From positions 128,001 to 192,000 of IMG/VR virus record IMGVR_UViG_3300028804_000001: 64,000 nucleotides of DNA; one strand, 5' to 3'. The notes beneath the pieces were generated by a model. It was not told the DNA's origin. It saw only the letters and a program-made list of their open reading frames with translations, and did no database searches. Of this stretch, positions 24,715 through 59,517 are shown in pieces. Made by a program: the position numbers and the translations under genes. Position 1 is the stretch's first letter; each line of letters begins with the position of its first letter. The stretch comes from a virus. Taxonomy: Duplodnaviria > Caudoviricetes.

Positions 24715-24716
24715 TG

Positions 24717-29343: not shown

Positions 29344-29344
29344 T

Positions 29345-30670
29345 TTACGTTCCTAAAATTGGGGGTCTGTTTCTAAGATCAAGAGGGGGCTGCAAAGGAG
29401 CATTGCCCGGTTTGATCATAGTATTCTTGGACCCATCTGCAAGAGATCCTCTTATTCTGCTATAGTCAAGAGGAGTTCCTTGCTTAGTATAATTTTCCAC
29501 AGCGGCTTTAGCTTTCATACCAGCCTCCGTGGCTATCTGATCAAATGCTTTGTTTCTAGCGGTAAGAGAAGCTCCCTTCTTCTTGAGCTCTGCTTCCTCT
29601 ACACTTACTAGTCTTTGAAGATTTCCAGCTTCTGTACCGTTTATCACTCCAACATCTTGAAGAACTGGAAGTAATGCTTTAATTCTTTCAGTCTTCTTAA
29701 GCTTATTTAAACGATCTTTATCAGTATACTGCGCCTGCTCTCCAATAAGAGTTTGAAGATCCTGATCTGTAAGCTCTTGACCATTTACCAATTTGGTAAT
29801 TGCTTCAACCTTTTCTTTTTCGCCAACGGAGTTAATTGCTCGCTGGAGATCCCTTAGATCCTTAAGTCCTTGTTTAGTAATCTTTGTAACTGCAAATAGC
29901 ATCCTTACAATACCAAACAAATATACAATCTCAGTTACCCAGGGGATATGTGTTGGGATAGGGGTAAAAACATTGGATTTGGGAACTGCATCGGCTACGA
30001 AAGTTTCCTGTGCCGGTAGTCCACCAAAGGTGGGATGGTTTCTTCCCCTATCTGCTCCTCTAGTATTGACTGAGTTTACTTGAGTTTGCAGCTGTCCGCG
30101 CTCTATAGCTACTACGTTTCCAGCCTTATCGAACTGAGTAATAGAACCAGTTTGGCTCTGATCAATTGCCATCCCAGAGCTCTTAGTAGTGAATGGTTGT
30201 TGGATAATAACCATTCCCTCTCTCTGGGTAAGACTTTTAGAAAGCTCCTCGAGCTTTCTCTTCTCATCGTTCATTGCAAGGCATACACCATTTAAGCCTT
30301 TGAGAAGAGCGTTCTTATCTACCTTACCAAGGAGATTAGCAGGAACTGCAAGGTTTTGAAATGATGGAGTGGATGGACCTGCTTTAATACGAAGTCCAGA
30401 ATTATCTCCACGTTGAAATGCATCGGCATTGGGCCATACAGCTTCCATCTGCCGGCCAGAAGATAAAGGAGTTACAATACCAGTGTTCTGATCCTCTAGC
30501 TGAACTCCTTTGATAATCTCTGGAGTGCCCTTGCTTGATTGAATTTGAATATCGGCAAATAGAACATCATTAACTCTATACGGGGACCCTGCAAGAGTTC
30601 CTCGTTTGCTAATAGGAGCAGACTGTTGTCCAACCTGCGAACCTGGTAAGTTATCTAAAGGTGTTCCCAT
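29345..30670 (-). CDS. Putative baseplate spike-like protein with helical C-terminal extension (441 aa)
   Basis: Occupies the position between the hub and gp25-like genes. Short beta-repeat GMAIDQSQTGSITQFDKAGNVVAIERGQLQTQVNSV, then hydrophobic WVTEIVYLFGIVRMLFAV and a coiled region. Confidence 0.4.
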   Translation of the reverse strand: MGTPLDNLPGSQVGQQSAPISKRGTLAGSPYRVNDVLFADIQIQSSKGTPEIIKGVQLEDQNTGIVTPLSSGRQMEAVWPNADAFQRGDNSGLRIKAGPSTPSFQNLAVPANLLGKVDKNALLKGLNGVCLAMNDEKRKLEELSKSLTQREGMVIIQQPFTTKSSGMAIDQSQTGSITQFDKAGNVVAIERGQLQTQVNSVNTRGADRGRNHPTFGGLPAQETFVADAVPKSNVFTPIPTHIPWVTEIVYLFGIVRMLFAVTKITKQGLKDLRDLQRAINSVGEKEKVEAITKLVNGQELTDQDLQTLIGEQAQYTDKDRLNKLKKTERIKALLPVLQDVGVINGTEAGNLQRLVSVEEAELKKKGASLTARNKAFDQIATEAGMKAKAAVENYTKQGTPLDYSRIRGSLADGSKNTMIKPGNAPLQPPLDLRNRPPILGT

Positions 30671-33600
30671 TATTGACCTCCTGTCGTGTTAGGAAGAACT
30701 GTCCTAGGGGAATAGGATTGGTTATTTTGAATTCTTTCAATAAGACCACCACCAGGAGTAAAGATATCTTGGCGGACATTATCTTGCGCTATATTAAAGT
30801 CATTCATAGAACCATCAAGCTGATTTAGTTGATCAGTAATAGAAGAACCAAACTCTTCTTTAAAGGCATCAATGTTAGCACTGAATCTAGATTTGAGGAA
30901 CTGCTGAATAACTCCAATACCATCTTCAGTAGTTTGAATATGTTGTTTTTGCATACCATCAAGGTTAGCCACAAATGGCTCACCCTTGGCATATAGTCCA
31001 CTAATAGTTAGAGCATTCTGGCCATAGTAGTTACTTATAATAGCATTGAATGCATTTGCGGTTGGATCCCAGATATATTCTTTTGCTAGATCTAGTCCTT
31101 TATAGGCACCATATGCTCCAGCAAGTCCCTTAACTCCAAATGGTTGGAATGCTGTAGCAGTTTCAAATATTCCCCCTATGATTGAATTACCACCGAGGAA
31201 CTGAGCTGCCAAATGGCGAGCTTTTACGTTCACGGTAAGGAATGCCTGGCTGGCAGTTTCCATAAGTCTCTTTAGATCTGCTGGACTTATATTTCCATTA
31301 GCACTTCCGATCTCCTGTAGATATGATCTTATTAATCCGCCTTCAGCTGCTTCTAGAGATGCTGGAGGAGTTCCTTTTCCAGAAAGCATATTCCAGAATG
31401 CTTCCTCTACATCAGAAGCTTTTACTTGTCTTGATATACCACTAGTCTCAGAAGTAATAGCATTAAGTTTTTCACCAGTAGAAGCCTCTCTAATAACTCT
31501 TTGTATCTCATCAATCTTAGCTTTATCAACAGACTGATCAGTCACACTGGTTATTACACCTTCAAGAGAGTTAGCACCACCATTAAATGTGTCTCGTGCA
31601 GCAGCTTCTACTTTTCCTCTGGCGGCCGATTTTCCAATAGTAGTCTGATTAGCCTCGAGTTCCTTTGCAAACTCACTAACATATTTCTTCATAGAATCTA
31701 GATCAGTTATCTGTCTAGATTCCAATTTATCGAGTGTTGCTTTTATATGAATTTTGAGCTCGGTTGGACTTTCTTCTACTACTCTAGCAATATTAGATTC
31801 ATATGTAGTAGATAGTTTTGCAATTTCTTGTTCAACTCTTGCTCTAAGTGCAATATCCTCTATCTTAGCTGCCGAGCTGTTTAGTTCTACAACAAACTTA
31901 CCAAATGTGGACTCTGCGCTTATTGCTTTTGCTGCAACCCCTTCAGATGCTCTGATCCCTTTTCTTATATTAGAAATCATAGTAGGATCGTCGAGTGTTC
32001 TTACAACTCTACCAACACCAGAATTATCAAATATTCTAGATGCCGTATTTCTAATAAAGTTTCCTGGTCTTTGTAAGAATCTGCTAAGTCCAGATCTAAC
32101 TGGATTAGATACTGCCTGTAATTCTCCTCTTGCAGATCGTAAAGCCCTAGCTCCACGAATTAAGAAGTTCTTAAGAGATCCACCTCTTCGTATAGCTCTA
32201 ATTCCAAGGAACAAAGTAGCGGCCATGGCAGCTGCACCAACTACAGTCATGATAGCCCCGGTTAAGGACCATATCCACGGTGTCTCAGGGCCATTAGATG
32301 TAGCATAATCATTATATGCTGGAAGTCCCGGAGTAACAACAGTCACGAATCCCTGCTGCTTATTAAAGATATGTGTATATTCTTTAACTTCAAAATGACC
32401 AAACATATCTCTGATTGGATCCGTTATATAAATAACATCCCATTCATTGATATTAGAGTCTCCCAAGAAGGTTATAGAGCCGTCATAATAATCTCTAACA
32501 AGATTGGATAGAACTCCGATACCCATAGATGCTATTGATTTCTCATGGTTGATAGCCTCTGAAGATGGGGGGTTCCTAACAAATGTTCTATATTTATTTA
32601 CCCAACGAAGAGTAGGTGATACAAAGTATGATCTCTTAACATAAGATCCAGCATCAATATCATTGATCGCGGGGTTTAAGAGAGTCTTTGCTCTTTCTTT
32701 CGCATCATCCTGAAACTTATCTTTAGCGGCCCCAAGGAAATGTACATCAGTCCAGTTAAAGCCTTTCTGGAGGTTAATAGAGTTATCTATAATATCAGTT
32801 TCTACATCTTTGTAGTGAATATTAGAAACACGTTTATGAGAAGAGCTTCTCTGATATCCTTGCTGTAAAGCCCAGGTTAGAACTTCCTCAGATCCTCTCA
32901 GGATACATTCTGAGACTGCAAAGGCACTATAAACTTCCTTAAGTTTTGGCTTAGAAGGATCATCCAAATTCTTTGTTTTGATATCATTCATTACACCGGA
33001 GATATCATCAACTACCATCCATCTAAGGACATGCATCTTCACCTGATCTAGAAAATCTCTATCAGTTGCAGTATTAATACCTACTCCAGCTTTTAAAGGA
33101 TATAGTAGGCTGATCATAAATCTTCTAGCAGATACATCATCAACTGGAAGAGGATTCCCCTTTTTATTCCATTCGATAAGTATATTCTTTATCTCGGCTA
33201 TACCACCGGAATTACCATCAGAGAATTCCTTTAAAGATCTCTGGGCTGCTAGTTGATCAATAGCAGCAGTTAAATCCTCGGTTATTAATCTTCTACCTTC
33301 TTCAGTAGTATTAATATTACCCTGCAGAAGATCTATAATTACTTGAACTCTAGCAGCATCCTGTGGAGAAAGCTCCTGAGGATTTTCATTTTCATCTCTA
33401 ATACTTATAGCAGTATTAATAATGAGGTTGATAATAGTAATAACATGTTCAATCTGATTTCTATCTGGTATATCGTAGAATACTTTTCCAGAGGATGTTG
33501 TATTCATCAATGCAAGAGATCTTGCAACATAGATATACCACATGGTGAACAGGGCAATAGAATCATCTCCTGGTTTAAGAACCGCATCGAGAAGAATTTC

Positions 33601-36600
33601 AATAGCTTCTAAATTATGACCTTTAACAACCTCAAGATGCTTAATGAGGTTAGCTGTCTTAATCTCTGGAATTAGATGCTTTCTACTATGACGATAGTAT
33701 CCTCTCATTCTATCGGTAATAACAAGAGTATTTCTTTCTCCAAATGGTCTTACTGTGCATACATGATTTGGAAGCTGAAGGAGAACTTCCTGGAGATATG
33801 ACCACATAGTTTCATTATAAAGAACATGTGCTTCTTGAGGACCTGCACCTTCTCCAGTAATAGCACGTTTAACATTACTATACTTTTCAACAGCTAAGAA
33901 ATATATCTTCTGAAACTCACTGGTAAATTTTTTAGCCTGGCTAACAGCATTTTGATCTATATATTCTTTTAGTGCATCGGACGTAGTCTTATCTGTAGTT
34001 GCAACTTCGTATACTTTTTTTCCTAATCCAAAACTATTAGCTATGGGAGATAAAGGATTAACTAGATTAGTTAGCTTGGATAATATTGGACTACTACTTC
34101 CAAATATCTTTTCTCCTGGATTTGTTAAGAATCCAGTTACTCCGCTAGCAACAGATCCTGCAGTTGACTGACTGGTATTATTAGCACCCGCGGCTGCAGA
34201 ACCATCTCCCCATAATTCAGAAGCACCAGCAGAATAAAAGCTATCACTATATATAGGTTCTAGAATCTCTTTCTTGATTTGTTCTACTTTAGAATCTCTA
34301 TCTGTAATCTTGCTGAAGTAGTTATATCTAGTATCATTTACAGGTGCATGCCAGATGCGAATGTTCTCCTGTATATTGTGAGACTGAAGGAGTTCGTTGT
34401 TATTTATACTTACAATACTTCCAATAGCATTTGCTACTGCATTAGTTCCACCAACTGATTTAAACAGTTCTTTTGCAAACTTACCAAGAAGTGCAGATGT
34501 TGCCTTCTCCTTAAGAGTTGCCAATAAGCTTTGGCTACTTGGATCCAGGTTATCAAATTCAAATGCACTGGATCCTGCAATTGAAGTAGTTTCTCCTAAT
34601 CTTCCCTCGAGCCTATCTGTTACTTCGGTAAAGTTATTAACCAGTGCTTTACGTACCAAGAATTCTAAAGCAGAATACTGGTTACGTTGAACCTGCAAAT
34701 CGGAGTAATGCACATTTACAATCTCAGGTTCCGGTACTCCCATCTGTTCATAGAGAAGAGATCCAAAGCTTGTACAAACAATCTCCATGATTTGATCGCC
34801 TTGCATGCTTTCTATCTCACCAACGAATACTAAATCGTCATTAGTAAGGACAGAACCATAACCAAGGAAGATCATGAGATGGCATCCAGGTTTAAGTAGA
34901 ATGCTACTTATCTCAGAGTTAATAGATGGATTGTAAAAGAGAGGATTCTCTTTCTGCATCCTATCTGCCATTACGTTTGTAAGCCGGTTAGAAAAGTTTG
35001 TAAGCTTAACTCTAGCAGTTCTCATTGGAGATTTAACGGAACCATTTACTTCGATGCTTTCTACTCCAGAGTAGGAATAATAATCATCTAATAAGAGCCA
35101 TTCTCTTTTGTTATCCTGGAGAAAGTATAGCTTATAGATTGGATTCATCTTTGCTATCTTTTCACCAAATCTATATTTCTGCGCATCGTTTAATATCTGA
35201 GATTGCATGTTTTTAGTAACAGCAAATCCAGCTTCTCCATAAGCACCGGCAGTTGTATGAAGAAGGCTTGATATTGTTTTTATCTTTGTAATTGTGCTTT
35301 GCTGTGTATTAAATGAATTCGCAGCAAATCTTAACTGCTGCGAATCAAAAGCTATCCTAGCTTTATATTTAAAGCTTCCAACTTCAGTATCATCACTGGA
35401 GAATGCATTTCTAAGAGTGTTATTATCTACTATTAAACCTGGCCCATTTAATGATCTAAAACTATCTGCAGTTAAACCTGCTGGGTTAGCCGGAGGATTA
35501 GTAAAAGCTCTAGCAAATGTTTGTGCTATACTATTATTATCCTCATAGCCAGTAGGAGCAGGAGAGTTTATAGCATTTCTAGCATCGCTACACAACTTCT
35601 CCATTTCATTTGTAAAATCAAAATTAGGAGCAAGACCATTGGGATTAATAGATTTGTTAGATTGTATATCTCTAAAAAACTCCCCTGCAAAAGGAGTCCT
35701 AGTTGCTAGATCCCATCCTAAATTTATTCCATTGAATATCTTTAATGCTTCTGCATTTTGTATATTTTGAAGGGATATGAGGTTGATTTGCTGAGTAAAT
35801 AAAATAGCCTTTGGAAATGACTGTGGCTGCTTTGATCCACTTGTTTCGAAGTTAAATACTGTTGCCTGATTGTTTTCGTTTATGTATGAAATTTCATAAT
35901 CAAGAAGGATTAATCTATCGCTGGGATTTCCACCGTTTGGTCGGAATCCTTTATAGAGAAGATGATATGCTAGATCTAGAGAAGATTTATGGAACTCTTG
36001 AATATTAGACTTTCGTTTAAAATATTCAGAGATAGGTTTTCCAGAAAGGGAGTTCTTAACAGTGTAGTTAAGAACTTGAAGCATAGCTACACGGAAGACT
36101 GACTTTAAGAAGAAGTCCGCAGATCCAGGAGATCCTTCGAATAACCTTTGGCCGTTTATTAAATTCTGAGCTCGTACAGTTGCATCTACATTCTGTTTAG
36201 TAATATTACCCAGAGAGTAATTATTAGATTCTATGATAGCTGTCTGGACCTGAAATTCTCCAGCTATCTTTTCTACATCCTTTGTCTTTTCAGAATATAT
36301 CCAGAACCCAGGATATGTGACTCTACCGAGAGAAGTATAATATCTAAGTGGAATAGACAGATAGGTATCTGGATCTATAATATGCCCTAAAGATGCATCC
36401 TGATCTATCTCTGGTGGAAAAATAGGCCCACCTGCAAAGTTATTTGCATCTTCAGATATCTGTGCAACTAAACGTAGAAGAACGGCATTACCTATAGTAG
36501 CATATGGTATATTAGCTATAACACCTTTGAGAGTCTCTAACTGACTATCATCACTGGATGAAGAGTTTAACCAATTTGAAACAGCATCTATAACAATTCC

Positions 36601-39600
36601 ACCGAGAGTATATATTAGATATGCTACAACTAATACTATACCAAGAACAGCACTGACTTCAAAAGCCAGAGCCAGTAAGACACCTATAGCTATTCCTATA
36701 GCTAAGTTAGATAGAATTGATAAATATCCACCTGATTGATCTACATATGTTTCCCATATTCCACTAATAGTAGAATCGGAAATGTGGCTGATATATGGGC
36801 ATATGAAGTATAAGAAGTACGGGTTATCTCTAGCTTCTGGGCTAGCAGGATTAAGATACTCCACATGAGAAGATCTAGGATCGTTAGACTGCTTAACAAA
36901 AGTATTCTTAATATAGTACATCTCTGTTTCATGAATGAAATAGAGAATGTAGAGTCTCATGAAGTTAAATAGAGCATCATTAATATCCCTATCTTCCGGA
37001 GTTTGCCTACGATAATTATTACCGTATGCTATAAGTGTTCTAGCTCTCTTAATTAATCTCTTTCTAGATTCTTTAGAAAGAGATCTAATTCTTCTTCCTA
37101 CTTTTCTTCTAAGTTTAGCACGAGCTGCTTTGAGAGCATCTACCTCGGCTATCATTTGCTCAGTGGGCTCTATTCCAGATGTAGAAGTTGGACTACTAAT
37201 ATTAATCTTAGATTCCAACATTGGGAGCATATCTGCAAAGGAATATAATCTATTTAAAGATAATAGACCAAAGCATGCAGCTCTATATCCAGCACGTTCT
37301 GTGTTTAATATTGTAGTTAGATAATTCTTAATTGTTAATATCTGATAACCGTTTATACTCGATGCAATATTATAAGAGTTAGTTCCAAGTCTATCCATGA
37401 AAAGAAGCATCAGGTTTCTCATAGAGGCGCCAGCTTCTTTTTTACTTCCACTTAGTAGATCTTCTAATCCAACTCGTTTTTTATATTCTTCGTATTTACT
37501 AGAGAAATTGCCAGTCGTTTTAAAAGCTTTTGAAAGCTTCTTTGCTTCATCCAGATCGCCGGCTTTATTTTCATCAAAGGCAACATTGGAGTTGCCGTCG
37601 ATAGTTGTCGTTATAAGAAAACCAAGATTAGGAGCTGTTGATGTTTGTTGAGTAGATAGACTAAGCGATGTGTAACCATAGAAGCCACCAGCCAATGTTT
37701 CTGATTTCAACTGGGGCCCATTGTATCCTAGATATTCATCCATCTTATTTACTTCTGTGGGAAGTAATAAGGTTGAGAAAATATCTCTGGCCCTTCTACA
37801 CCATTGAACTATAAGACTATCTAGCTCATCTGGCTTATCATATGCCATCAGGATTTCTTTAATGAAATCCATATAATAGCTGGCCATTAACTGGGGAAGA
37901 TTAACATATAAGAGAGGAGCTACAGCTGGACCGAATTTGGCATTTATTTCTCCTATAGTTCCAGGTAAATCTGGATTAACAGCAGGTTGGACGCCATTGG
38001 GATTAACGGGATTTAATTGAATATTCTGACCGTTTATATTTACAGTATCTCTTCCAGCTGTTCTAGAAGGCATATTCTTATCATGTAGTTCAACTAGATA
38101 AGATATAAGAGCATCGATATTATCCTCTTTAGCTGGCTTTAAAGTTACAGTAGAAGAGTCCTTGACACTTGCAAACTTAAGTTCATCCGGAACTTTCTCA
38201 GCCTTCTCGCCAAGAATGTGTAATCCTGCCCATGCAGATGCAACTCCAATACCTATCTCTGCAAATTCCATTACTATTGCAGCTATACCCCCACCCCTAG
38301 AAAGCGTTTTAACTTTCTTCAAGGCGCCTGCTATCTTTGGAAGTTTACCAATTTTGGCTAAGAAGTTAGTTACGCCAGGAGCTATCTTGGTTGTAACCCT
38401 ACCTGCTGCACCTATGGTTTTATCTGGTGCTGCAGTTACAGCTAAGAAGGTTGCTCCACTTGCAATACGAATCATCTGATCTTCAGAAGCATTTGGATTT
38501 TCAAGTGCTCCTAATATACCTGGCATGATAGAAGGTTCTAGTGCGTGGGTGCTGTCTCCTATTGTTCTTTGTACAATTCTAAAGTTATGAAGGCGCTCTA
38601 GATTGATAGTTTCATTTGCAGGGAAAGAAGCTTTGAAGCCGCTAATTATTCTTTCTATTCTAAGAAGATATCTATTAAGAGCATAAGCTGCTAATACTGG
38701 AGCTACTGCGTTAATAATACCAACATGTGCAAGATTGAATCTAATAGACCTAGAGGCTAATCTAGCTTTGGCGGAATCGGTAGAATCTTCTACCCCTTTA
38801 ACTATATCTGCTAAAAGTGATCCTTCACCACCTTCTCGTTTCTGCCGGATTTGTTCCTGCAGTTTCTTTTGAAGTTCCTCGGGATTACCTTCTGGATCAT
38901 CGAATGTGGCAAACCACGCAATGGCCTTTTCTGCCATCTTCTCAGAAGAAACCTTTTTATATCTTAAAGATTCGGTAAGAGCGAATCTTCTATCTATCCA
39001 CTGACAGGTTAAAACAATACTAAGATGGCCTGGGTTTCCATCCAGTGTAGATATATCTGCTCTGGTTGGGTAGAATGACTTCATCCCAAATGCCGCAAAC
39101 AGAGGATGAGATAGGATCATTGGCTCTTCTTGGCCAAAGAATGGATCGTCAATTCTACCAGTTAGGCTCTTAACAGAATCGGCAATGATTTGATTAAACT
39201 GCTCGAGATTGAGATTATCTCTAAGAAGTCTTACAGCTCTAAGAGTTTCATCCGGGAATATCTGAGCAGGACCTCTATCTAGAAACTTTCTAAATGTTGA
39301 CTGAGAAGGATTAAACATAGCCCGGCCTTTTAATAAGCCGCGGGCTTGCTGCATCATATTATTAAGGGACTCATAAAGAGTAGTTCCCTTGAACATAGAT
39401 AAGATCTTTACAACTGTATCTGGATCATTAGTTACTATGTTCATAGTAACATATGCATTACGTCCACCCATGAACTGGCCAAATGGTTCATTGGCACCGG
39501 TCATAAAAATTGGTGTGGTATTATTATTAATACCCATAGAGACTTGAACTACTTTGGTATTAAGAACCTTACGAGCAGAACTAGAAGTAGTATCTTGCTG

Positions 39601-45019: not shown

Positions 45020-45066
45020 GTTTATCCCCGGTAATTAACATCAAGACGATAGGACGCTAGTAAAGT

Positions 45067-45098
45067 AAAGAAAAAACTACCAATTAGGTAATGATAGT
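45067..45098 (-). terminator. Possible intrinsic terminator after the 2780-aa gene
   Basis: Minus strand reads ACTATCA-ttacctaat-TGGTAGT (7-bp stem with one G:U), followed by TTTTTCTTT. It lies in the only sizeable intergenic gap of the window. The stem is weak. Confidence 0.4.
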
Positions 45099-45115
45099 AA
45101 CGATTTTAGACAGGA

Positions 45116-51100: not shown

Positions 51101-53458
51101 TTTGGTCATGACTTTTCCGGCTTTAGACTTGGCTCCATCCTGCATAGCCTTAAAGCCATTGAATAGATTTTTATAGCGTTTCAGAGCCAGAGAAGAGGCA
51201 GTTGCCATTCCATGTTCGTTATAATCTCTTTCGAACTGCATTCGAATGGCAGCCATCCGATTATGGATCCTACTGTAAAAAGCATCACTATAGGCCAATT
51301 GGGGGCCTTCAAACACTAGGGATACTTTCTTAAATACATCCGCGGTTGGATTTTCTTTATTCCTTGGAGCAGCAAATGTGAATTCAAAGGTCCTATTTCC
51401 GCCGGCACTTTGAATGGTTTTTGAATAGATTTTTCTAGCTAATTGTGCCGAATCGTATCTAGACTGACGGGCATCCAGCCTATCCGTAATACGCTTATAT
51501 CTGCTGTACACTATCTCGTTGAATGAAGGAGATACTCCTCCTTCTTTTGGTTCTACGCCCCATTTATTCTTTATACGATCTAACAAAAGATTATTGGCAT
51601 CTATAGTCTTAAATGAGAACCCAAAATTAACTCCAGTTTGCATCATCTCTTTAACATGGCGTGCATACTTTGTGGCCATCTGATTAGACCATGGAGTAAT
51701 CGATGCTACATTAAAAGCTCTAGGATCTGCAAGCTTTCTAGATCCTGGATGTCCTTGAATATCATCCGGGCTCATCTTAAATGACCAGCTAAATTGATCT
51801 TTAGTTCCTGATAATCCCGTGGGTATCTTCGGAACTTCATTTAGATGCCCTAGCTTACTGGTAAGGATATCATCCATCTTATGGAATAACTTATAGTGAT
51901 CACTCCATGCAAACATAACATCTGCTGCCATACGAGATGCAGATGAAGCTTTTCCACCATTAGCAGCATAGTCTGCCCAGTAGTTTAAGAGCAAACCTCT
52001 CTTCTGCATATAGTTATGAAAACCAGTTCCAGTTAAAGCCTCTCTAAGATCTGCAGGCATATCTGGACTGGTAAGCATTTGTGCTAGAGGCCCTTCTCTA
52101 AATGATCTATCCCATTCATCATCTCCACTAAGAAGACCCATCAATACATGTTCTGATGCAGCTTTCTTGGCATCGAAAGAAGCACGCATTACTCTAGCAT
52201 CTTCGAGCCTTGCTTCTTCTTGTCCTACATCTATATATTTCTTTTCTCCATCTTTATCACGGTAAGATTTAACATCACCAGATCCACCTTCTACAAGTCT
52301 ACGCATCATTCGGTAACTTAAGGATGAATAGGTGGCAACTGAAGATCCTTCATATTCGCCAAAGAGAGTAGAAGATGCGCGCAATAGAGCTCCACCATTC
52401 TTAGTTCTCTTGGCTAGTTCTTCAATAGTTTGGCGCCCTCTTCCAATATTTTCCAATTCTGCTAAGAAGAATTGCGTGTAGCTCATATAACCAGAAGCTA
52501 CAGATGTTTTACTTCCAGATCTAAGGACGGCTCCCTGGAATCCTATTACTCCATTAGAATCTGAAGATATGACATTTATATTCCTGGGTATTCTCTTAGC
52601 ACCAGGAACTCTAGGTATACTGCCAACTCTAGTCGTTACTTCGATATTGGCATTGTACATATCAAAGGATCCGTCTACTGGTACAGCAACATGAATCTCA
52701 TGAGTAGATCCAGTAGTTCTATCTCTTACTTCAAATGCGGTTATCTTAATACCAATCTGACGGGCTGGTAGTCTTCTTGCTATTGGTCCATTTTCATTAG
52801 TTACTAATTCATAATTGCTATGAGCATGCTTAGAATATTCATCAAGCATCATCATAAACTTTCTTTCTTCTCTAGACATCTGATCTGGAGTGATCATAGA
52901 TGCCAGCTTCATTGGAGTATGTTCTATACCACCGGCAGCTTCTGCAAGAGTCTTATCGAATGGACTCATCTTACTGATTACATATTCTTCTATAACTGCT
53001 TTTTGTTTTCCAGGATCGTTGGAGTATTTCTCCATTAAGTTCTTAAGTTCATCATGAGCTCCAGCCATAACCTCTTCAAGAGAGAGATTACTAAGCTGAC
53101 CTTCATCACGTATGTTTCTTAAAAGCTGCGCAAGTTTAGGATCTCCTTCTACAGTATATCCGCCAGGAGAAGCCTCGGTTCTTTTAAAGAACTCCTCCCC
53201 TTCCAGGATGAGGGGATTCCTTTGTGGATTTCTTTTACGCTCTCGCTCGGCATGAATCTTACGATATTCATCTTCAGCCTTCTTAACCATCTTTCCCTGT
53301 TGTTTAGCCATGGCATTTCTAAGTGCCAGGACACCAACAGGGACACCTACAAAATAGGCAAACTGCTGAAGAGGAAAAGCGGCTTTAGAGATAATCCCAG
53401 GATCTGTTGGATCATCTTCATTATCCGGTAAATCTACATTATGAAAGTAATCTTTCAT
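45116..53458 (-). CDS. Candidate single-chain two-barrel (DPBB) RNA polymerase, probably virion-associated (2780 aa)
   Basis: Beta-like motifs: NVATIVSSRGAQWSAVE(915)D(916)GAL and RTLEFDAIKSVPDGDYK(1079)QAKHYGVVEK(1089)AAM. Beta'-like motifs: NIALTSFR(1968)QSIYSP and IALADGD(2006)QD(2008)SD(2010)LMY. Order matches a fused beta-beta' polymerase. Confidence 0.65.
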   Translation of the reverse strand: MKDYFHNVDLPDNEDDPTDPGIISKAAFPLQQFAYFVGVPVGVLALRNAMAKQQGKMVKKAEDEYRKIHAERERKRNPQRNPLILEGEEFFKRTEASPGGYTVEGDPKLAQLLRNIRDEGQLSNLSLEEVMAGAHDELKNLMEKYSNDPGKQKAVIEEYVISKMSPFDKTLAEAAGGIEHTPMKLASMITPDQMSREERKFMMMLDEYSKHAHSNYELVTNENGPIARRLPARQIGIKITAFEVRDRTTGSTHEIHVAVPVDGSFDMYNANIEVTTRVGSIPRVPGAKRIPRNINVISSDSNGVIGFQGAVLRSGSKTSVASGYMSYTQFFLAELENIGRGRQTIEELAKRTKNGGALLRASSTLFGEYEGSSVATYSSLSYRMMRRLVEGGSGDVKSYRDKDGEKKYIDVGQEEARLEDARVMRASFDAKKAASEHVLMGLLSGDDEWDRSFREGPLAQMLTSPDMPADLREALTGTGFHNYMQKRGLLLNYWADYAANGGKASSASRMAADVMFAWSDHYKLFHKMDDILTSKLGHLNEVPKIPTGLSGTKDQFSWSFKMSPDDIQGHPGSRKLADPRAFNVASITPWSNQMATKYARHVKEMMQTGVNFGFSFKTIDANNLLLDRIKNKWGVEPKEGGVSPSFNEIVYSRYKRITDRLDARQSRYDSAQLARKIYSKTIQSAGGNRTFEFTFAAPRNKENPTADVFKKVSLVFEGPQLAYSDAFYSRIHNRMAAIRMQFERDYNEHGMATASSLALKRYKNLFNGFKAMQDGAKSKAGKVMTKVKGFDDFVKTFGEFIDTVSPDEIGKYTRISTNANYVRDRNVGIRSIAYPSYRIDNKKSVIEADFGSKTHRLRFLQLTGDPADELNSVLRSLDDVQRQRIANGLQQTVSNVQHNVATIVSSRGAQWSAVEDGALRVLAKDGYEDGITGVVTTTSSGKFHLRKFINKETGKWDIELAIEGIGESKIIKTGHRARSFLEKLITETESAQAQLASRTDKEVSRSYISRTFKEHNLDAGVEVFSRRGANGWEFNSFSQSLLSWKAHIRSQPVGDNDVEPPIRTLEFDAIKSVPDGDYKQAKHYGVVEKAAMSTREFEVAMQDPYLNKVANAAGLSGGRRGFIIADTASKGTTGYKTMGVITHVYNQTMRATVNALKERYEEFRKRNPRLEAWSLRNLKNEGFLNRFKLVDFHGKRITNLLNLQKYVLEYTFLSTLTPFQISKDAAGAHEYNIQALRGLREVQKGTSSFVDLLKSNQGLADAVERAKSIASNFYTAAPVVVNKTGEYDFIVNLKRGIPNGGFIDDVIGPAPVLWQIGKDDKLNPLKDFDIYNPGKLNSELETIVKKAIDKDTRVGTYHPLVEAGELVSDLIHKFRYGSQSAGAPKLAVELIRDIGSHDLKVEAKRDVSALSGMFSPIQIIEGQHTHTIMYGTDATAKFFPRGGSGVLPSNVHFNMRDLLLLKQRNPAAANMVQEHMASGKLWLEKEIDFQLRFLDSAKSMSDSIKSAAGNIKVKRNAIRSMLLHPYRTDRKRSSFDPKRNPFLTDPVAQAGGDANRALAIVGEIQQNKFLDFKDLIDATIAEARGNIRGPHSLSSMNITEAATKLFDSSKEIGVEQFNILRKNLEDVIRHSGKGPATLKILLSGFEGSEAIVNQLSGLGNRNILEAPLEFNHHDIEDVVRKATLENVDGKKIASARIAKITKGSSTDVAMRFMQMVSALDYIAESKRAYKGDGATLSALEKLNTDIIHGFANDLNGIAEYIKTHGAGKGTQIENRGYKQLIPGTYSMFRSDAIQAKVGTNGSIPISAEQAAGYITMNQEEAIRFMLGVDHGGRKAYKYAAKVNKMIKLVNEAVRISTNISEGQGVHTVSPIWDEVKELGHLQTFIDYLEKTDITRIKDHKQLKDFHNALRFLKRSSVSKRETGLIDFIKSLQDPESANSLKAKLYDESVRRVRGIMKGNINIALTSFRQSIYSPTDFRQLFLRIDNSLHNGQIFGSSIDIALADGDQDSDLMYHIGRGSRDLYISTIEDKAVKLAHARNELQIRASGLLQERLLYQPSNESTFRSYNVATQRWLRKSADIGKNAYYQMTALKDVIDSHVKDTLHLYNIKATPQEIEDLTKTYTKSILKPRMEGRAGANVDELFFISHGLADHDSRKIVLHLSQNSGKLTATMHHPGAGGSGGVFAQIAADDGAIKAAFISDAREKLASKYKKTSEGLKSRLENFFQELGDESGPISDLRGRISPETSSIVKDAAGVPYKYTTFANLTLEVAERNWFTGVKHAASREAFKEDMKKRYGTSNIPSSFNTEVIDTLRERFIRPAAEQLAMQSKHGSANIIRSFVERMQEAAKNVKLVDPTNPFSEITPDSLDKFKNTVRQISNFRAFEVDLGAWEKNVMARTGKDLGRMRYSGYLDIVKKRMLSSDLAIKSLMASQNGEIPTLEAMKNVNIQAMKGPAVGDLQARINAVVEKHGGSQSEALEKFFHSAYERFGSDKYYRNLSRSAKAGNLSRAILTQMASDMEDYSKMGATNAGAHTLMAHYALSMELRAGHVRMMRDFDLSKGMVELQLRITGAAEADRGFRVMKRSAEMGYEYLRGNGELDLHGYVKWINETHAGAPRRAAISGAAWFLNKRADDVSELFKLSNEHESHNYWDSISHAEGGLNLNKSYHSTALEMKNMGKSALVGTFLAMGINQLLSGYAVPDLDRTQGKGGEYWEKKARKQSEMNMKPRAPMVEAADPNRAVDVATAMQYAQQNRTFIQQKDHARNQNFKQKSSYGVRIQ

Positions 53459-56400
53459 TATACTATTTCTATCGTAACCTGCATTGGGCCGTCAGATTGT
53501 TCAACACTTATTGTAGGCCGCATACTAGACAGAATCCTCTGCAAATGAGCCTTTACCTGCTGCGCATCTACTCTATATGAATCCTTTCTTCTAGGACCGT
53601 CTATATCTTCTATAGTCATTTCAGGGATATGCATTCCCATACTCTGCATCTCTGCCATTCTTCTACGAGTCTTCTGCCATCCTAGGCCGGCATCTGTAGC
53701 ATTAAGACCAGCATTATCCATCGTCTTAACAGCAACATCTTCAAGAGGCTGATCGTAGTCTGATACAATCTTTGGATCTACTTTGTAATTACCAGAGAAA
53801 GAACCGGGTAAGTAATCTCTCTGAAGTCCCATTGATCTATCTGCCAGGATAGAAACTTCCTCTGGCATTACTCTTCTAAACTCAGATATGTTTGATGTAT
53901 TTAATTCACTCAAGATATCATTTAAATACATCCGTTCCTGTTTATTGGAAACAGAGGCTATCCTGGAATTTGTTATAACCTGATTAGATTCCAGGGTGGC
54001 AGTCATCGTATTCTTCATACGATATCTATATTCAGAGGCGCCTGTGGAATCGTATAATTCCTTATAGCGTTCCATCTCTGCTTGATCGGCAGCAGCTAAA
54101 ATCTGCCGCATCTTCTGGGTCTTATCAGGAATCCAGCCCGCACCATTAACTATCTGAGCTCCAGTAAGAGACCATGCAGTTCCAGCTAATCCACCAAGAG
54201 CTGCTCCTACAGAACCACCAAAAGCAAAGCCGGCCGTAACCCCAGATGCAGCAGCCTGCAATGGATCCGTCTCTCGAGCCATAAGGTTAAAGTATGGCGA
54301 TACATATGAATCAATGGGATGATTCCACGTTTTAAAAGATTGGCCATAAACCATATCTTCTTCATAAGCTTGGAGAGCTGTTTTATTACCTATGAACTTC
54401 CTAGTGATGGGGTTTCTAAATGTGGATAAATATTCCCATGCTCCACCAATAGCTCTCTCTAAAGGATTGTATTGATCATCTACTTCTCTCTGAGATGTTA
54501 CTTCATCTGGAGTTAATGCATCTCCTTGATTAAGGAATCTAGATTGCATGAAGTTCATGCTCTTTCTTTGCTTCTCTACTTGATCCAGAGTATCCTGGTA
54601 TACCTGAATATCATTCTCATCAAGTAGTCCTTGATTCATTTGAGCTCTAACGATCTTAAGTGTGGATCTATACTGATCACTAAACGGTGCAACATCTGCC
54701 AGGATCTGCAGTCTATCTATCATGCTGTAGTTTATTCCTGGTGCTACTGGTAGACCTTCATCATATCTCTTCTTCATGGCAGTTAAACCTTTCTGCCTGT
54801 TCATTAAATCTACCGCGGATTCTTGTTCATACTTATCCTGGTCGGCCTGAATAATCTCTTCTGTGGTATGACCTTGCTCATCAATACCAACAAGCAATCC
54901 TCTCTTCTGGCCACTTAATACCAGGTAAGCATTCATTGCTCCTTTAGATCCTTCTATAAATCCTCCGGCCTTAGCTAGATAGGGTGCAAACTTAACAGAT
55001 ACAATATCTCCAGAATCTGTTTGGTATGTAGCATCGGCATATGCTGTTAAGTTCTTTGATGTATCATATACAATACTCTGCTCTTTCATAAGCTTGCCTT
55101 CAGCTTTGATAAGAGCTAAGATTTCCTCTTTCTTCTCGTTTACTTTATCGGCCCATTGATATCTAGGAACAATTACCTCAACATCTCCTGAGTAGAAACC
55201 AATTGCATCCTTACTATTTACACCAAGCATATCAGCTTCACCAGGAGTCGCTGGTGTGATGTTTCTTAGAGTCTCATATGCTTCCCCAGGTAATCTTGCT
55301 TCCCCCGCATCTACCTTTGAATATGGATCCCCATGTTTAAAGTCGGTGAAGTATTCTGATCCCGGCATCCAGTTTGGCTGCAGGTTACGTACTGGATTAT
55401 ACATCTCATAATCTTTGGCCTGTCTAGGAAAGATACGACGGATACCTTCGGTAAGGCCCATAAGGCCACCGAGCTGCATATCCCAGAAGCTGCGCCCTAA
55501 GGATCCAATGTTTGGTGCATCTATCTCAGGAGTCTGAGAGAATAGCTGTTTATTGCCTGTAAATACGTCCTGAAGAACTTCAGCACTAAAACCTCTAAGA
55601 CCTCCAACTTCCTTTAAGTTATAGAATCCGTGTGATAATCTACTCTCTATACTATCTCCTTCTAAAGGATCCCCATAGAAAGCATTCTCTACCATACTCG
55701 AGGCGCCCATACCAGTAGCTCTGGCCAGCCTTTGAGTTTCAGTTCCTCGGTTATGGATAATAGCATTAGCGGTTGCCTGTGCAGCTGCCTGTGTTCCAAC
55801 CATATCCACATCATCTCGATGCATTGGAGTATTTCCAAGATTAACAAATGGTCCTATGATTGGTATGTTAGAGAATACTCCAGGAGCTGCAAGGGAGGGT
55901 CTAGAATAGTAGTGCTTCCTGTTATAGACCGCGGGATCTACATAGCTCATCATCTCAGTCATGAGATCGCTTTTAAAGTTGGGAGACCAACGGTAGTCTG
56001 ATCTCATCATTGCATACATATGCGGCCGGAAGTAACTGGTCTTATCGCCCAGGAACGAGTTACTACCCAGTTCCCAGAAGCGGGATGTTCTAATCTCTAC
56101 TTCTTTTTCACCTTTGAATTCTGCTAAAGTTTCTGCTCGGTTCTTAGATATATCCCATTCTCCAAATAATCCAAGTGGTCCACCGCCCAGTAACATACCA
56201 ACTGCACCACCGATAACACCACCAGTAATCCCACCCCGAGCTCCACCAGCAGCAAATCCCTTTGTAGCTCCAATGACAATAGGGGCAAGACCTCTCAGAG
56301 CTCCAGATAAAGGAGAGCTAATAGATCCTGGTAGCCAGTTCTCTAAATACTTTGCAGTGCTCGTAACTCCAAGAGTATCAAGAACTCCCTGTGCACCTAA

Positions 56401-59400
56401 ACGCATACCAGCATATGCATTCATTGGTAGCATATAGATTCCCTCTTTAAGAGGGGTATTGTCAAACAGGGTGCTGTTATCTATAATTCTATCTGCAGCA
56501 GTGAGGCCGGCAATTAAACCACCAACCGGTAGGATCCTCTTGGTAATCCACTTCTGGCCGAGCTCTCTATAGTTGGCATAATGATCTATACCAACTCCCA
56601 GGAGACCCATGGTCTTATTAAATGTCCCGAGAGCGGCTGCCATGAATTCATGACCAAGACCGGTATAGTTTGCTATCTCTTTTGGATTCTGCCCATTGGC
56701 ATCATATAGCATGGAAGTCCTGGCAGTTCCAGAACCTTTATCTCCAAATAGAAATACAGTATCAGAAGAGAGAGGAGGATACTTATAACGTGTTGTGGAC
56801 ATGGATTTCATCATCTGAGATCCAGGCGCCAGTAACTTTTTAACTACCGCTTCCTCTTCCGGTTCTATCTTTAGTATTAATCTATTTATAACATCATTAA
56901 CATTATCGTGAAAGTGTTCAGGTGGAACGGTTAAATCTGGAGTTTGCAAACTCTTAATTGCATTGATCTGAGCATGCGACTTCATGATATTTGAATATGC
57001 TCTAATCTCAGTATCACTTCTATATCCTGCCTTACCCAATACCTTGGACATGGCATCTATGCCTTCGATTATATTACCCTGTCTATCAGTAGTCTTTGCA
57101 CGCAGAGTAAAGTTATGAAGGAGCATTGATTCGTAATCATCTCCAACACTGGAGGTGAAAGATTTACCAGTCCTGGTTAAAAGACTTCGTACGTCAGATG
57201 GATTGGTAGTTGTTATTAAATCTCTCAGCTGCTGAACGGCAGTTACCATGTCTTTGGACTTGTGAGACATTGCCCACTGTTCTACTTTAAGAAGCCTATC
57301 TATAGCTTCTGTAGAATCTTTAACACCATGGAGGGACATACTGCCTAGAGTCTTCCCAGCATCTTTTAAACCCATAGCATCAAGGCTAGATACTATGTTT
57401 CCATAATGCTTACCTTGCATAGTTACAAAGTCAAACATCGAATGCTGGGAACTTACAATTGTATCTTCGAATACACTAAGTGCTGCTTTCTTAAACGTTT
57501 CTCCGCCTGGAGTCTTTGTTAGCTTTGTGAACTCTCCCTTTGCTTCTTTAGTAAACCATGTAACGGCGTTTCTAGGATTGTTCATCTTCTCGAAGAATCC
57601 ACTTATCATTGAGAAGACACTCTTAACTCCAGCGGATCCTATATCCCATTTCTCACGCATGGCGTACGCCCACCCAAGAGCATCCTCTGTGGGTACTCCG
57701 TACATATGGGCCATATCTGCTATTTCACCTGGACTCCTAGGTCTTGCGTAATTAACTCCAACATAATAGGATCCTTCTCCTTCTCCTATTTTCATAAACC
57801 CAATACCTCTGGCAACATGCTCTGCCATATTGGATTTATTATTCTCTACGAAGTGTTTTATCCTACCTCCACCTGCCAGGGTATATTCCTTACCAGAATG
57901 ACCATTGAGTAATGTTCCATATCCATTCTCATCTATACGGAAGATACTTCCTTTCTCCAATGGGAGAATGCCTTGTTGGAGATTTCTAAGAAGTCTTTCT
58001 TGAAATGGCCGGCTTACATTAACCCCACCGGTATTACCAGCATCAAACTTAATATCATTATGAGCTAACCATAGATCATCTAGAAGAGTCTTGGCATGAA
58101 CTTTAACATCCTTGGATGGTCCAAGAAGATCGGCCAATGCCTTCTCAGTCATAGGCCTGAGATCTCCATTAGCATGTGGATCTGCAGAGGCACTAAAGTT
58201 ATCGAAGATAGTATTTAGATCTTTCCCTTGTAAAGATCTGGCTTTGTATTGTGGTGCAAATATCTGACGATTGGGAGCACCATGGATATACGATCTAGCA
58301 GTTCTGGTAAAGCTACTTCTAAGATAGTTAGCACCACCGGTTATAATCTTCAAAGGGGCCAGCCCCATTATATTAAAGTTATCAAGAGCATTAGCAGCAA
58401 GATCTCTAATCTTGCCCATGTGAAAAGCTCTAACATCAAATACCTGGCTTTCACCTTCTCCATATCTTATAAGACCACGATCTCTAAAATAGACATTAGC
58501 ATCATTGGCAGCATGACTTCTAGAAAGTCCCAGAACTGCATCATTCTGAAACATATCTTTTTGTTTATCTGGGAAAAGCTTCTTAACCCACTTAACAATT
58601 CCTTCATCTTTCTGAATCATCTCTCTGTGTTGTCTAGCTAACTTAACTGCGAAGTCAGGAGTTAAATTAGCATGCGCATCTGCAGCAGATAAGATGCCTC
58701 GAGTAACATGTATATCTTCGCTAAAGATACTTCTCTTATTAAGCCTGAAGTCTCTATGCGCTTCGACTAGATCTTTTGCTCTTCTTCTAAGACCGCGGAT
58801 ATTTGTGAAGTCTTGCCAGTGCCTATTCTTAAAAACCTCCTGTTTCATATGGGATACATAACCCATATTCTCTCCAGCCTGTCGGCTTACAGCATTCATC
58901 CCATGGAAGAGAGCCATCCCAATAGGAGCCATTCTCCCTTTATCGATCATATGATGAACGAAGTTAGCTCTCATCTGCTTACTTACCATACGGCCGGCAG
59001 ATGATAATGCACCGAATGCTAAAGAGATAGGAAGGTAAGAAGCATAGTAATGTGCAAAGTTCATGTCCCGCATCTCGGGACTCTTTGTCTTATCGTATCT
59101 ATAGATAGCATACATGACTGGCATAATTGCCAGTTCATTCTTTGCATAATCGAGGGCCCAGGTTCCTACTCTCTGGTTGTGTCCTCCACCTAAGAATCTA
59201 CCAAGAGCTCTAGAAGTTTTAACTGAGAACGGGGACATCTCACCGGCAAACTTCTCAGCTTCAGTAGCAATACGACGCATAGAACGGTATACAGATTGGT
59301 ATTGCTTACGTGCTGTTCTAACAGCAGATCTAGTTACTATATCGTTGAGTGGCTTACCACCATGCTCAAGTATCTCTTTAGTGAGAATGTGTTTCTTTAA

Positions 59401-59517
59401 AAGGTCATAGCCTATCTTCCGGGTAGCCTTAAAGAACTTCCCGGCATTCTTGAGGATTACATTCCCAACTGCAGAGGATCCGAAGATCTGTGTAAATAAT
59501 GGAACTGGGTTAATCAT
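53458..59517 (-). CDS. Tape-measure-position / ejection protein (2019 aa) with Gly-rich hydrophobic segments and a degenerate PD-(D/E)xK-like domain
   Basis: First giant gene after the chaperone pair; largely helical. Gly/Ala hydrophobic tracts: GLAPIVIGATKGFAAGGARGGITGGVIGGAVGMLLGGG and GVTAGFAFGGSVGAALGGLAGTAWSL. Motif-like blocks: RFWELGSNSFLG, NWMPGSEYFTDFKHGDPYSKVDAGEARLPGEAYE. Confidence 0.55.
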   Translation of the reverse strand: MINPVPLFTQIFGSSAVGNVILKNAGKFFKATRKIGYDLLKKHILTKEILEHGGKPLNDIVTRSAVRTARKQYQSVYRSMRRIATEAEKFAGEMSPFSVKTSRALGRFLGGGHNQRVGTWALDYAKNELAIMPVMYAIYRYDKTKSPEMRDMNFAHYYASYLPISLAFGALSSAGRMVSKQMRANFVHHMIDKGRMAPIGMALFHGMNAVSRQAGENMGYVSHMKQEVFKNRHWQDFTNIRGLRRRAKDLVEAHRDFRLNKRSIFSEDIHVTRGILSAADAHANLTPDFAVKLARQHREMIQKDEGIVKWVKKLFPDKQKDMFQNDAVLGLSRSHAANDANVYFRDRGLIRYGEGESQVFDVRAFHMGKIRDLAANALDNFNIMGLAPLKIITGGANYLRSSFTRTARSYIHGAPNRQIFAPQYKARSLQGKDLNTIFDNFSASADPHANGDLRPMTEKALADLLGPSKDVKVHAKTLLDDLWLAHNDIKFDAGNTGGVNVSRPFQERLLRNLQQGILPLEKGSIFRIDENGYGTLLNGHSGKEYTLAGGGRIKHFVENNKSNMAEHVARGIGFMKIGEGEGSYYVGVNYARPRSPGEIADMAHMYGVPTEDALGWAYAMREKWDIGSAGVKSVFSMISGFFEKMNNPRNAVTWFTKEAKGEFTKLTKTPGGETFKKAALSVFEDTIVSSQHSMFDFVTMQGKHYGNIVSSLDAMGLKDAGKTLGSMSLHGVKDSTEAIDRLLKVEQWAMSHKSKDMVTAVQQLRDLITTTNPSDVRSLLTRTGKSFTSSVGDDYESMLLHNFTLRAKTTDRQGNIIEGIDAMSKVLGKAGYRSDTEIRAYSNIMKSHAQINAIKSLQTPDLTVPPEHFHDNVNDVINRLILKIEPEEEAVVKKLLAPGSQMMKSMSTTRYKYPPLSSDTVFLFGDKGSGTARTSMLYDANGQNPKEIANYTGLGHEFMAAALGTFNKTMGLLGVGIDHYANYRELGQKWITKRILPVGGLIAGLTAADRIIDNSTLFDNTPLKEGIYMLPMNAYAGMRLGAQGVLDTLGVTSTAKYLENWLPGSISSPLSGALRGLAPIVIGATKGFAAGGARGGITGGVIGGAVGMLLGGGPLGLFGEWDISKNRAETLAEFKGEKEVEIRTSRFWELGSNSFLGDKTSYFRPHMYAMMRSDYRWSPNFKSDLMTEMMSYVDPAVYNRKHYYSRPSLAAPGVFSNIPIIGPFVNLGNTPMHRDDVDMVGTQAAAQATANAIIHNRGTETQRLARATGMGASSMVENAFYGDPLEGDSIESRLSHGFYNLKEVGGLRGFSAEVLQDVFTGNKQLFSQTPEIDAPNIGSLGRSFWDMQLGGLMGLTEGIRRIFPRQAKDYEMYNPVRNLQPNWMPGSEYFTDFKHGDPYSKVDAGEARLPGEAYETLRNITPATPGEADMLGVNSKDAIGFYSGDVEVIVPRYQWADKVNEKKEEILALIKAEGKLMKEQSIVYDTSKNLTAYADATYQTDSGDIVSVKFAPYLAKAGGFIEGSKGAMNAYLVLSGQKRGLLVGIDEQGHTTEEIIQADQDKYEQESAVDLMNRQKGLTAMKKRYDEGLPVAPGINYSMIDRLQILADVAPFSDQYRSTLKIVRAQMNQGLLDENDIQVYQDTLDQVEKQRKSMNFMQSRFLNQGDALTPDEVTSQREVDDQYNPLERAIGGAWEYLSTFRNPITRKFIGNKTALQAYEEDMVYGQSFKTWNHPIDSYVSPYFNLMARETDPLQAAASGVTAGFAFGGSVGAALGGLAGTAWSLTGAQIVNGAGWIPDKTQKMRQILAAADQAEMERYKELYDSTGASEYRYRMKNTMTATLESNQVITNSRIASVSNKQERMYLNDILSELNTSNISEFRRVMPEEVSILADRSMGLQRDYLPGSFSGNYKVDPKIVSDYDQPLEDVAVKTMDNAGLNATDAGLGWQKTRRRMAEMQSMGMHIPEMTIEDIDGPRRKDSYRVDAQQVKAHLQRILSSMRPTISVEQSDGPMQVTIEIV

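Follow-up and report, generated by a model that had tools for sequence, protein, structure and literature searches.

A predicted RNA polymerase core in the tape-measure-position giant of an uncultured jumbo contractile-tailed phage with a probably split baseplate hub

The stretch of phage DNA analysed here (the window) comprises 64,000 nucleotides of an uncultured virus assigned to the Caudoviricetes (IMG/VR record IMGVR_UViG_3300028804_000001, positions 128001 to 192000), and includes a block of four giant genes at window positions 30670 to 59517. One of the encoded proteins, P0002, was found to carry the conserved catalytic residues of a beta'-type RNA polymerase (RNAP) core in its C-terminal third. 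As a whole, the block is probably a module for the tail lumen and baseplate hub, from a jumbo phage with a contractile tail that belongs to a broad 0305phi8-36-like assemblage, in which P0002 provides a virion RNAP core within the giant at the tape-measure position, P0003 and P0004 together make up a split hub, and P0001 is a member of the gp145 family; this explanation is held with moderate confidence.

The phage contig is circular and ~225.5 kb in length, with ends that overlap by 133 bp. Four giants had been claimed in an earlier reading made from the letters alone (the sequence-only reading), and minus-strand open reading frames (ORFs) of exactly these sizes were present: P0001 (coordinates 53458 to 59517; 2019 aa), a member of the gp145 family; P0002 (45116 to 53458; 2780 aa); P0003 (39822 to 44900; 1692 aa), which consists of a hub-giant N-terminal domain, an EEP domain and a further C-terminal part; and P0004 (30670 to 39822; 3050 aa), an oversized baseplate hub of the gp147 family. 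All window features described below are likewise on the minus strand. The P0001 and P0002 genes, the P0003 and P0004 genes, and the P0004 gene and the gene that follows it each share one base and are therefore translationally coupled. The sole intergenic gap in the block (44901 to 45115) is filled by a 39-codon ORF read from the sequence (44900 to 45019), and the TAA of this ORF overlaps the ATG of the P0003 gene (TAATG), suggesting translational coupling at this junction also. The four giants were near-blank to standard libraries, as Pfam returned a weak EEP match in P0003 and PHROGs a single match in P0004.

With regard to the RNAP motifs attributed to P0002 in the sequence-only reading, the protein has a single DxDxD-type site, LADGDQDSD at residues 2003 to 2010. 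The predicted metal-binding loop, G2005-D2006-Q-D2008-S-D2010 (47429 to 47446), is in register with the ADFDGD of relatives and lies within a polymerase core at residues ~1765 to 2332 (46463 to 48166) that has invariant or near-invariant columns in alignments A1, A3 and A6. The core spans a 'GKG...YS..RS' block, R1968-x-(P/S), the GDQDSD loop and an 'EQLAMQSKH' block. Close relatives of P0002 are scarce, with one relative of 93% identity found by a word-indexed protein search, three distant homologues found by an exhaustive HMMER search of 1.84 billion representatives using residues 1300 to 2499 as the query, and one short metagenome contig (L005) found in a metagenome scan. The loops in P0002 and the distant homologues (~22% identity) are GDQDSD, GDQDGD and GDTDKD, giving the pattern G-D-x-D-x-D-L-x-Y, and G2005, D2006, D2008, D2010, L2011 and Y2013, together with R1968, D1976 and F1977 upstream, are invariant in the alignment of the P0002 clade.

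A wider family was identified using 80 IMG/VR loci, many on contigs of ~200 kb, that were fetched via the P0001-family alignment. In most of these loci, the ORF after the P0001-family gene (1200 to 3000 aa) includes an RNAP-like loop at ~75–80% of its length. This loop is canonical (NADFDGDQ) in the middle giant of locus L043 and near-canonical (ADxDGD) in the cultured Bacillus phages KLEB27-3, Edson and WH1, with KADYDGD and KADHDGD found at the same relative position in the middle giants of KLEB27-3 and Edson, respectively. In a 48-sequence family alignment, MAFFT placed all loops in register, D2006 and D2010 were invariant, and R1968 and D2008 were nearly so. The core profile matched 56 of 85 loci.

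When the 48-sequence family profile was compared with PDB sequences, ~60 of the 74 matches were RNAP largest subunits. The best were AR9 beta' (E 7.7e-6), phiKZ (1.8e-4) and Rpb1 (8.8e-4), followed by bacterial beta' and the African swine fever virus and vaccinia virus subunits, and gp96 of phage P23-45 (8h2m_A) appeared in the list at E 0.31. The alignment covered the beta' "GKxG...YSxRS" block and the R-x-P...DxDGD barrel. The P0002 clade was also compared with the rest of the family after removal of the clade from the template, and hhalign returned a Prob of 90–91% and an E value of ~1e-6 over R-x-P...DxDxD. As an internal control, the best non-self match of the core profile in the genome was the catalytic loop of a 920-aa polymerase candidate (genome coordinates 65110 to 67872; E 0.004). 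Loop conservation, the hhalign comparison and the family profile all point to a double-psi beta-barrel A with a DxDxD loop in P0002. Candidates for a bridge helix and trigger loop downstream of barrel A are a conserved 'EQxxIxxKH' block, located ~320 residues after the catalytic loop and presumably resembling the start of the beta' trigger loop, and long helices that follow the barrel in the structure models of both P0002 and the L043 protein. Candidate motifs for a second, beta-like barrel that would supply basic residues to the active site lie further upstream, where relatives share a 'GEKxTD...NPxxxKHxDFG' block with invariant lysines and P0002 has 'KSAAGNIKVKR...NPFL' at residues 1504 to 1545.

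Routine annotation would miss this polymerase core, as Pfam PF00623, for which the cut-off is 25.3 bits, reached 17 bits in relatives and had no match in P0002, and NCBIfam gave nothing. Direct searches with P0002 were also empty or nearly so, whether by tblastn against phages, against PDB sequences, by IMG/VR pattern scans or by HMMER against the 0305phi8-36 and KLEB27-3 records. A hidden Markov model of the P0002 clade found nothing in the loci, nor was P0002 reached when searches were iterated from L043 as the starting point. P0002 is tied to the other middle giants by profile-profile comparison only.

The fold of a family member was examined using an AlphaFold2 model of the L043 core, for which the predicted local distance difference test score (pLDDT) was 70–95 over residues 345 to 710. 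Foldseek found 121 matches to this model at E <= 1e-3 (down to 2e-5), the top 50 of which were all beta'/Rpb1/A' chains, and the top 17 VIA-align matches were two-barrel polymerases only, with Z scores that included 10.1 for QDE-1, 8.8 for RDR2, 8.3 for Pol I and II and 7.8 for P74-26 gp62. Lower in the list were crAss gp66 (5.0) and gp96 (4.9). Together with the profile alignments, the L043 fold gives good support to a predicted beta'-type barrel in the family, and the alignment extends this to P0002.

The arrangement of the block was compared with those in cultured phages. The virion structural proteins matched by P0001 come from the Bacillus jumbo myophages 0305phi8-36, KLEB27-3, Edson and WH1 and the Moorella phage MTATph1. 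A common gene order is seen in 0305phi8-36, KLEB27-3, Edson and MTATph1, where the genes for the sheath and tube are followed by two chaperone-like genes, a gene for a gp145-like protein of ~2000 aa, a middle giant of ~2400–2500 aa, a hub giant of ~1900–2300 aa, and then gpV-, W- and J-like genes. The gene order in these four cultured phages and the 80 IMG/VR loci places the polymerase-type core of P0002 in the giant at the tape-measure position. Fusions had been suggested as something to look for in the sequence-only reading, but P0001-family and polymerase genes were never fused in the 80 loci. On gene order and homology (P0001 to gp145 and P0004 to gp147), the block is taken to be the counterpart of gp145-gp146-gp147 in 0305phi8-36, where the hub is similarly oversized and has exchangeable enzyme domains. 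P0002 and P0003 had no counterpart in 0305phi8-36 or KLEB27-3 by phmmer. There are also differences, in that 0305phi8-36 has three giants rather than four, its hub bears transglycosylase, NlpC/P60 and M23 domains, and it has no separate EEP protein.

In the published analysis of 0305phi8-36, gp146 was read as a tape measure mainly from tail-length correlation, and gp147, on the basis of hidden Markov model comparison by HHsearch, was considered homologous to T4 gp27 and P2 gpD but "hyperplastic", the enzyme domains that it bears being exchangeable (Hardies et al. 2007, PMC2147016). A giant block of this kind is thus already known for this phage assemblage. According to GenBank notes, gp145 and gp146 were both detected in virions by mass spectrometry, and gp031, gp033 and gp034 of KLEB27-3 carry structural annotation. 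The 0305phi8-36 gp146 (locus L001, coordinates 23933 to 31546), which has been read only as a tape measure, and the corresponding giants in L051 and L083 have no DxDxD loop and no core-profile match, whereas KLEB27-3 and Edson keep ADxDGD, and the enzyme may have been lost or have diverged to an extreme degree in some lineages. In MTATph1 (L004), the middle giant is shortened to 1309 aa and lacks DxDxD, and a transposase gene (coordinates 26246 to 27733) separates it from the hub giant, so that the middle gene may be disrupted in this phage.

The closest functional precedent is gp96 of the Thermus siphophage P23-45, a 5002-aa tape measure in which an active RNAP of the two-barrel type makes up the N-terminal part (Chaban et al. 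2024, PMC10770324). This RNAP is found in P23-45 virions and transcribes pre-early genes, one of which encodes a second, non-virion RNAP (PMC10770324). P0002 resembles gp96 in its giant size and tape-measure position, in the cellular-type core that a single chain provides, in the DxDxD loop, and in having hydrophobic segments in the same protein or a neighbour. A non-virion two-barrel polymerase distinct from the tail giant is found in P23-45 and predicted in the present phage. In the present genome, two further polymerase candidates were seen outside the window, at genome coordinates 65110 to 67872 ('RHPVH...GDFDGD') and 92785 to 95190 ('GDGDD'). However, P23-45 is a siphophage with an 800-nm tail, whereas the present phage and those related to it encode a sheath and have genomes of ~200 kb, and here a second giant, P0001, always precedes the polymerase gene. 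The domain order also differs, as the gp96 core is N-terminal (residues 327 to 1124) and is followed by peptidase and membrane domains, while no peptidase was found in P0002. The similarity of the family to gp96 is weak in both the profile and structural comparisons, where AR9 and phiKZ beta' and QDE-1 score higher. By analogy, P0002 would work like gp96 but falls outside the gp96 sequence family.

The same polymerase-core family is represented at the same position by KLEB27-3 gp034 (annotated 'structural protein') and Edson GAKEdson_0920 ('hypothetical protein'), both with sub-threshold PF00623 matches. Neither is annotated as a polymerase or has detectable pairwise similarity to P0002, the link being via profiles. 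The N4 virion RNAP (T7-like, and of unrelated fold) and gp66 of the crAss-like phage phi14:2 (two-barrel; PDB 6vr4) are also giant, packaged and ejected, and support host-independent early transcription, but ride in the capsid of short-tailed phages and are not the products of a tape-measure-position gene in a phage with a long contractile tail. A crAss-like or N4-like origin for the block, with a capsid-borne polymerase, was dropped because of the myophage tail-module synteny.

Hitherto, the only phages described as having a polymerase hidden in a tape-measure gene were a single group of Thermus phages without contractile tails. No paper extending tape-measure-fused RNAPs to contractile-tailed or jumbo phages was found in the literature library that was searched, and for 0305phi8-36 a separate YonO-like enzyme only was described by Iyer et al. 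(2021). What is new is such a polymerase, predicted here in the tape-measure-position giant of contractile-tailed jumbo phages, widespread among them and combined in this lineage with a split EEP-bearing hub. The sequence-only reading had gone further in knowing of no described system with this combination, a view superseded by the gp145-gp146-gp147 block, the tape-measure RNAP of P23-45 and the nuclease-bearing hub of the BtI1 prophage.

Tail-delivered transcription, with enzymes passing through the tail, is plausible by analogy with P23-45. The anchoring of transcription at the membrane, the genome entry driven by it and the nuclease acting where the DNA enters, which the sequence-only reading had also pictured, are hypothetical. 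The packaging, ejection, activity, template and timing that this would entail can be set out as follows. P0002 would be assembled into the tail together with P0001 and expelled on sheath contraction, after which it would act as a virion RNAP that makes the first transcripts without host RNAP, like gp96 in P23-45. These transcripts would include the genes for the other polymerase candidates (genome coordinates 92785 to 95190 and 65110 to 67872). The hydrophobic segments of P0001 and P0004 may insert into the host membrane and form or line an entry channel, and the substrate of the EEP domain, at the tail tip, would be a phosphodiester of the envelope or of nucleic acid.

An alternative that is considered unlikely is that P0002 is a tape measure or other structural protein of the tail lumen in which the polymerase-like domain is an inactive relic, early transcription being left to host RNAP or to the other phage polymerases. 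This would fit 0305phi8-36, where the only middle giant supported by published virion and tail-length arguments (PMC2147016) is one that has neither the DxDxD loop nor a core-profile match, as well as the third or so of loci with no core match, the second barrel that was not found, and the departure of the P0002 loop from the canonical NADFDGD. However, several of the loci with no match are contigs that have been cut short, and the same arrangement in P23-45 is an active enzyme (PMC10770324). Moreover, clades that share only 10–22% identity agree, fully or nearly so, in all three aspartates, in the glycine before them and in the arginine further upstream, as would be expected of an active site that functions. 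Another explanation, judged to be quite improbable, is that P0002 is active but is not packaged, and merely lies within the tail operon as a late non-virion enzyme or one that uses other templates, such as the RNA-dependent QDE-1 and RDR2. These two enzymes are the best structural neighbours of the L043 model. Against this, the P0002 gene is translationally coupled inside a structural operon, between the gene for a virion protein and the hub, its position right after the gp145-family gene is kept in dozens of loci, and KLEB27-3 gp034 bears a structural-protein annotation, while the two other polymerase candidates are in non-structural regions of the genome.

A number of observations nevertheless weigh against P0002 being a virion RNAP. 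The mass spectrometry evidence for a middle giant in virions concerns gp146, which is not of the loop-bearing type, and the present phage is uncultured. A folded polymerase core of ~100 kDa does not obviously fit in the lumen of a tail tube, the core is located in the C-terminal third, unlike that of gp96, to which structural similarity is weak (Z 4.9), and, given the two other candidates encoded in the genome, a third polymerase would not be strictly required. The model of the P0002 core itself was poor (mean pLDDT 53) and Foldseek found nothing significant with it. VIA-align matched residues 1783 to 2023 with the largest subunits of Pol I, II and IV and of archaeal RNAP, and with CDC48-N barrels, at Z 7–7.9, which is within the noise band. 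The P0002 clade alone had no PDB, Pfam or NCBIfam match. A second, beta-like barrel was not demonstrated, as the conserved upstream block had no PDB sequence match, hhalign was not significant, and pLDDT was low there in both models. P0001 was considered as the supplier of such a barrel in a split polymerase, and its 44-sequence family profile gave no evidence for this when compared with the PDB.

The remaining two giants, P0003 and P0004, are read as having arisen when a single ancestral hub giant was split in two, the enzyme slot being occupied by an EEP domain, which accounts for the sequence relationships better than two independent components would, because the N-terminus of P0003 matches the N-terminus of relatives' hub giants, P0004 matches the remainder, and the enzymes of relatives lie between the two. 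Specifically, a conserved segment at P0003 residues ~140 to 200 (44301 to 44483) has a counterpart close to the N-terminus of the one hub giant that relatives possess; a profile of P0003 and its L005 homologue matches this N-terminal region in ~40 loci (E 1e-5 to 1e-2), and a genome search with the N-terminus also matched two relatives. P0004 is collinear with relatives' hub giants only from their residue ~365–685 onward, and M23, glucosaminidase and NlpC/P60 domains are found between the P0003-like and P0004-like parts.

The sequence-only reading had noted an intact EEP motif set in P0003, and this was borne out. The motifs tested (N, E, H, D-x-N, D-H and S-D-H) occur in order at residues ~553, 603, 718, 765–767, 959–960 and 1074–1075, placing the domain at residues 550 to 1078 (41667 to 43253), with long inserts between motifs IV and V and between motifs V and VI. 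Pfam PF03372 scored 24.3 bits, just below its cut-off of 24.5 (E 3e-5; profile positions 22 to 156 of 225), and 25 of the 30 nearest atlas clusters were EEP families (score 0.94). On the L005 contig, the C-terminus of a P0002-like protein is followed by a P0003 homologue with 31% identity in which the first four EEP motifs are intact.

As the EEP domain occupies the slot of the cell-wall hydrolases of relatives, its target may be the envelope and not nucleic acid. A phosphodiesterase or phosphatase directed at the envelope, and not a nuclease, would aid the tail tip in breaching it, for example through a sphingomyelinase- or phospholipase C-like activity or by action on phosphodiester links of teichoic acid or lipopolysaccharide; this is thought to be somewhat short of probable. 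The EEP superfamily includes membrane-lipid phosphodiesterases, and the M23 peptidase, glucosaminidase and NlpC/P60 domains borne by this part of relatives' hubs (for gp147, PMC2147016) are all envelope-degrading. However, the EEP motifs do not reveal substrate specificity, and the gp147-family hub of the BtI1 prophage has a staphylococcal-nuclease domain at its N-terminus (PMC2147016), a precedent for a true nuclease in this slot. BtI1 is similar in having a phosphoesterase- or nuclease-type enzyme on its hub's N-terminal part, but the fold is that of staphylococcal nuclease rather than EEP, and in the present phage the enzyme-bearing part is encoded by a separate gene.

P0004 was matched by phmmer to 0305phi8-36 gp147 (E 4e-12), KLEB27-3 gp035 (5.5e-18) and four IMG/VR third giants, with E values ranging from 1e-10 to 2e-31 and all matches collinear. 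The hub fold assigned to it by the sequence-only reading therefore stands on homology to gp147, an accepted member of the gp27/gpD family through its published HHsearch assignment (PMC2147016), and to its relatives, but was not recovered in direct tests. A profile of conserved P0004 residues 1520 to 1710 (34693 to 35265; alignment A7, 14 sequences), a candidate for gp27/gpD domain 1, had no match in the PDB and aligned with residues 34 to 61 only of P2 gpD in hhalign (E 0.31, not significant). One hub-family member touched PF22759 'baseplate hub gp41' at E 0.07, which is also not significant. The single PHROG match (PHROG 20474; E 1e-27) covers 74 residues and is to a family labelled "endolysin". 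A second conserved hub region at residues 2426 to 2535 (32218 to 32547) ends in a hydrophobic segment (residues 2514 to 2541), and the strongest transmembrane-like segment of the block is at residues 1056 to 1078 (36589 to 36657), with a Kyte-Doolittle mean of 2.5–2.75.

P0001 aligns with 0305phi8-36 gp145 by phmmer at E 4.5e-49, collinear over residues 1104 to 1878, and had 106 IMG/VR matches. This collinear homology and the position of its gene directly after the tail chaperone genes place P0001 in the gp145 family. The degenerate nuclease fold proposed for it in the sequence-only reading found no support, as nothing of the kind was seen using Pfam, PHROGs, NCBIfam, the atlas or the 44-sequence profile against the PDB. 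Membrane-like segments had been proposed for three of the giants, and these hold for P0001 and P0004. In P0001, they are a glycine-zipper-type segment at residues 1095 to 1119 (56161 to 56235), which has no charged or strongly polar residues and is conserved in family alignment A2, and a second glycine-rich segment at residues 1755 to 1787 (54157 to 54255) with a conserved G/A pattern in A2. The ends of P0002 are only moderately hydrophobic, and P0003 has no such segment. The hydrophobic segment and conserved motif at P0002 residues 2678 to 2733 (45260 to 45427) form the best-conserved part of its own clade (A1 and the C-terminal alignment with L005), and this module was unmatched outside the clade. 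The gp145-family gene is split into two ORFs in several relatives (L002, L007, L057 and L064/L066), with products of 1340 and 677 aa in KLEB27-3 as an example.

Taken more broadly, a large unrecognised family of virion RNAPs may reside in the 'tape measure' giants of jumbo phages with contractile tails (~56 of the 85 loci, including KLEB27-3 and Edson), to be expelled with the DNA for host-independent transcription at the membrane, with the hub serving as a platform for exchangeable tip enzymes, here EEP. This generalisation is offered tentatively, as nearly an even call. If true, tail-delivered transcription would be a common strategy and not a curiosity of Thermus siphophages, and many jumbo myophages would start infection without host RNAP, via a tail-carried enzyme, with a bearing on the evasion of host shut-off or defence and on the passage of a large folded enzyme through a tail tube. 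It also bears on the real content of "tape measure" genes, and the split EEP hub would be a further case of a hub carrying exchangeable entry enzymes. The ADxDGD-loop proteins of KLEB27-3, Edson and WH1, which are now labelled "structural" or "hypothetical", provide experimental handles.

The genes flanking the block were described in the sequence-only reading as chaperones on one side and spike, gp25 and J genes on the other. Family searches did not recognise them, and their identity comes only from the gene order shared with 0305phi8-36. The exception among the flanking genes is one encoding a 444-aa protein (23398 to 24729), in which a Peptidase_C39-like domain (E 3e-9) and, weakly, a CHAP domain were recognised. 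Located five genes downstream of the hub, it is possibly a tail-associated wall hydrolase of the type that the hub itself lacks in this phage. A fifth giant ORF (565 to 8718; 2717 aa) has C-terminal PHROG matches to baseplate-wedge and tail-fibre families (E 1e-24 to 8e-33), and probably encodes a tail fibre.

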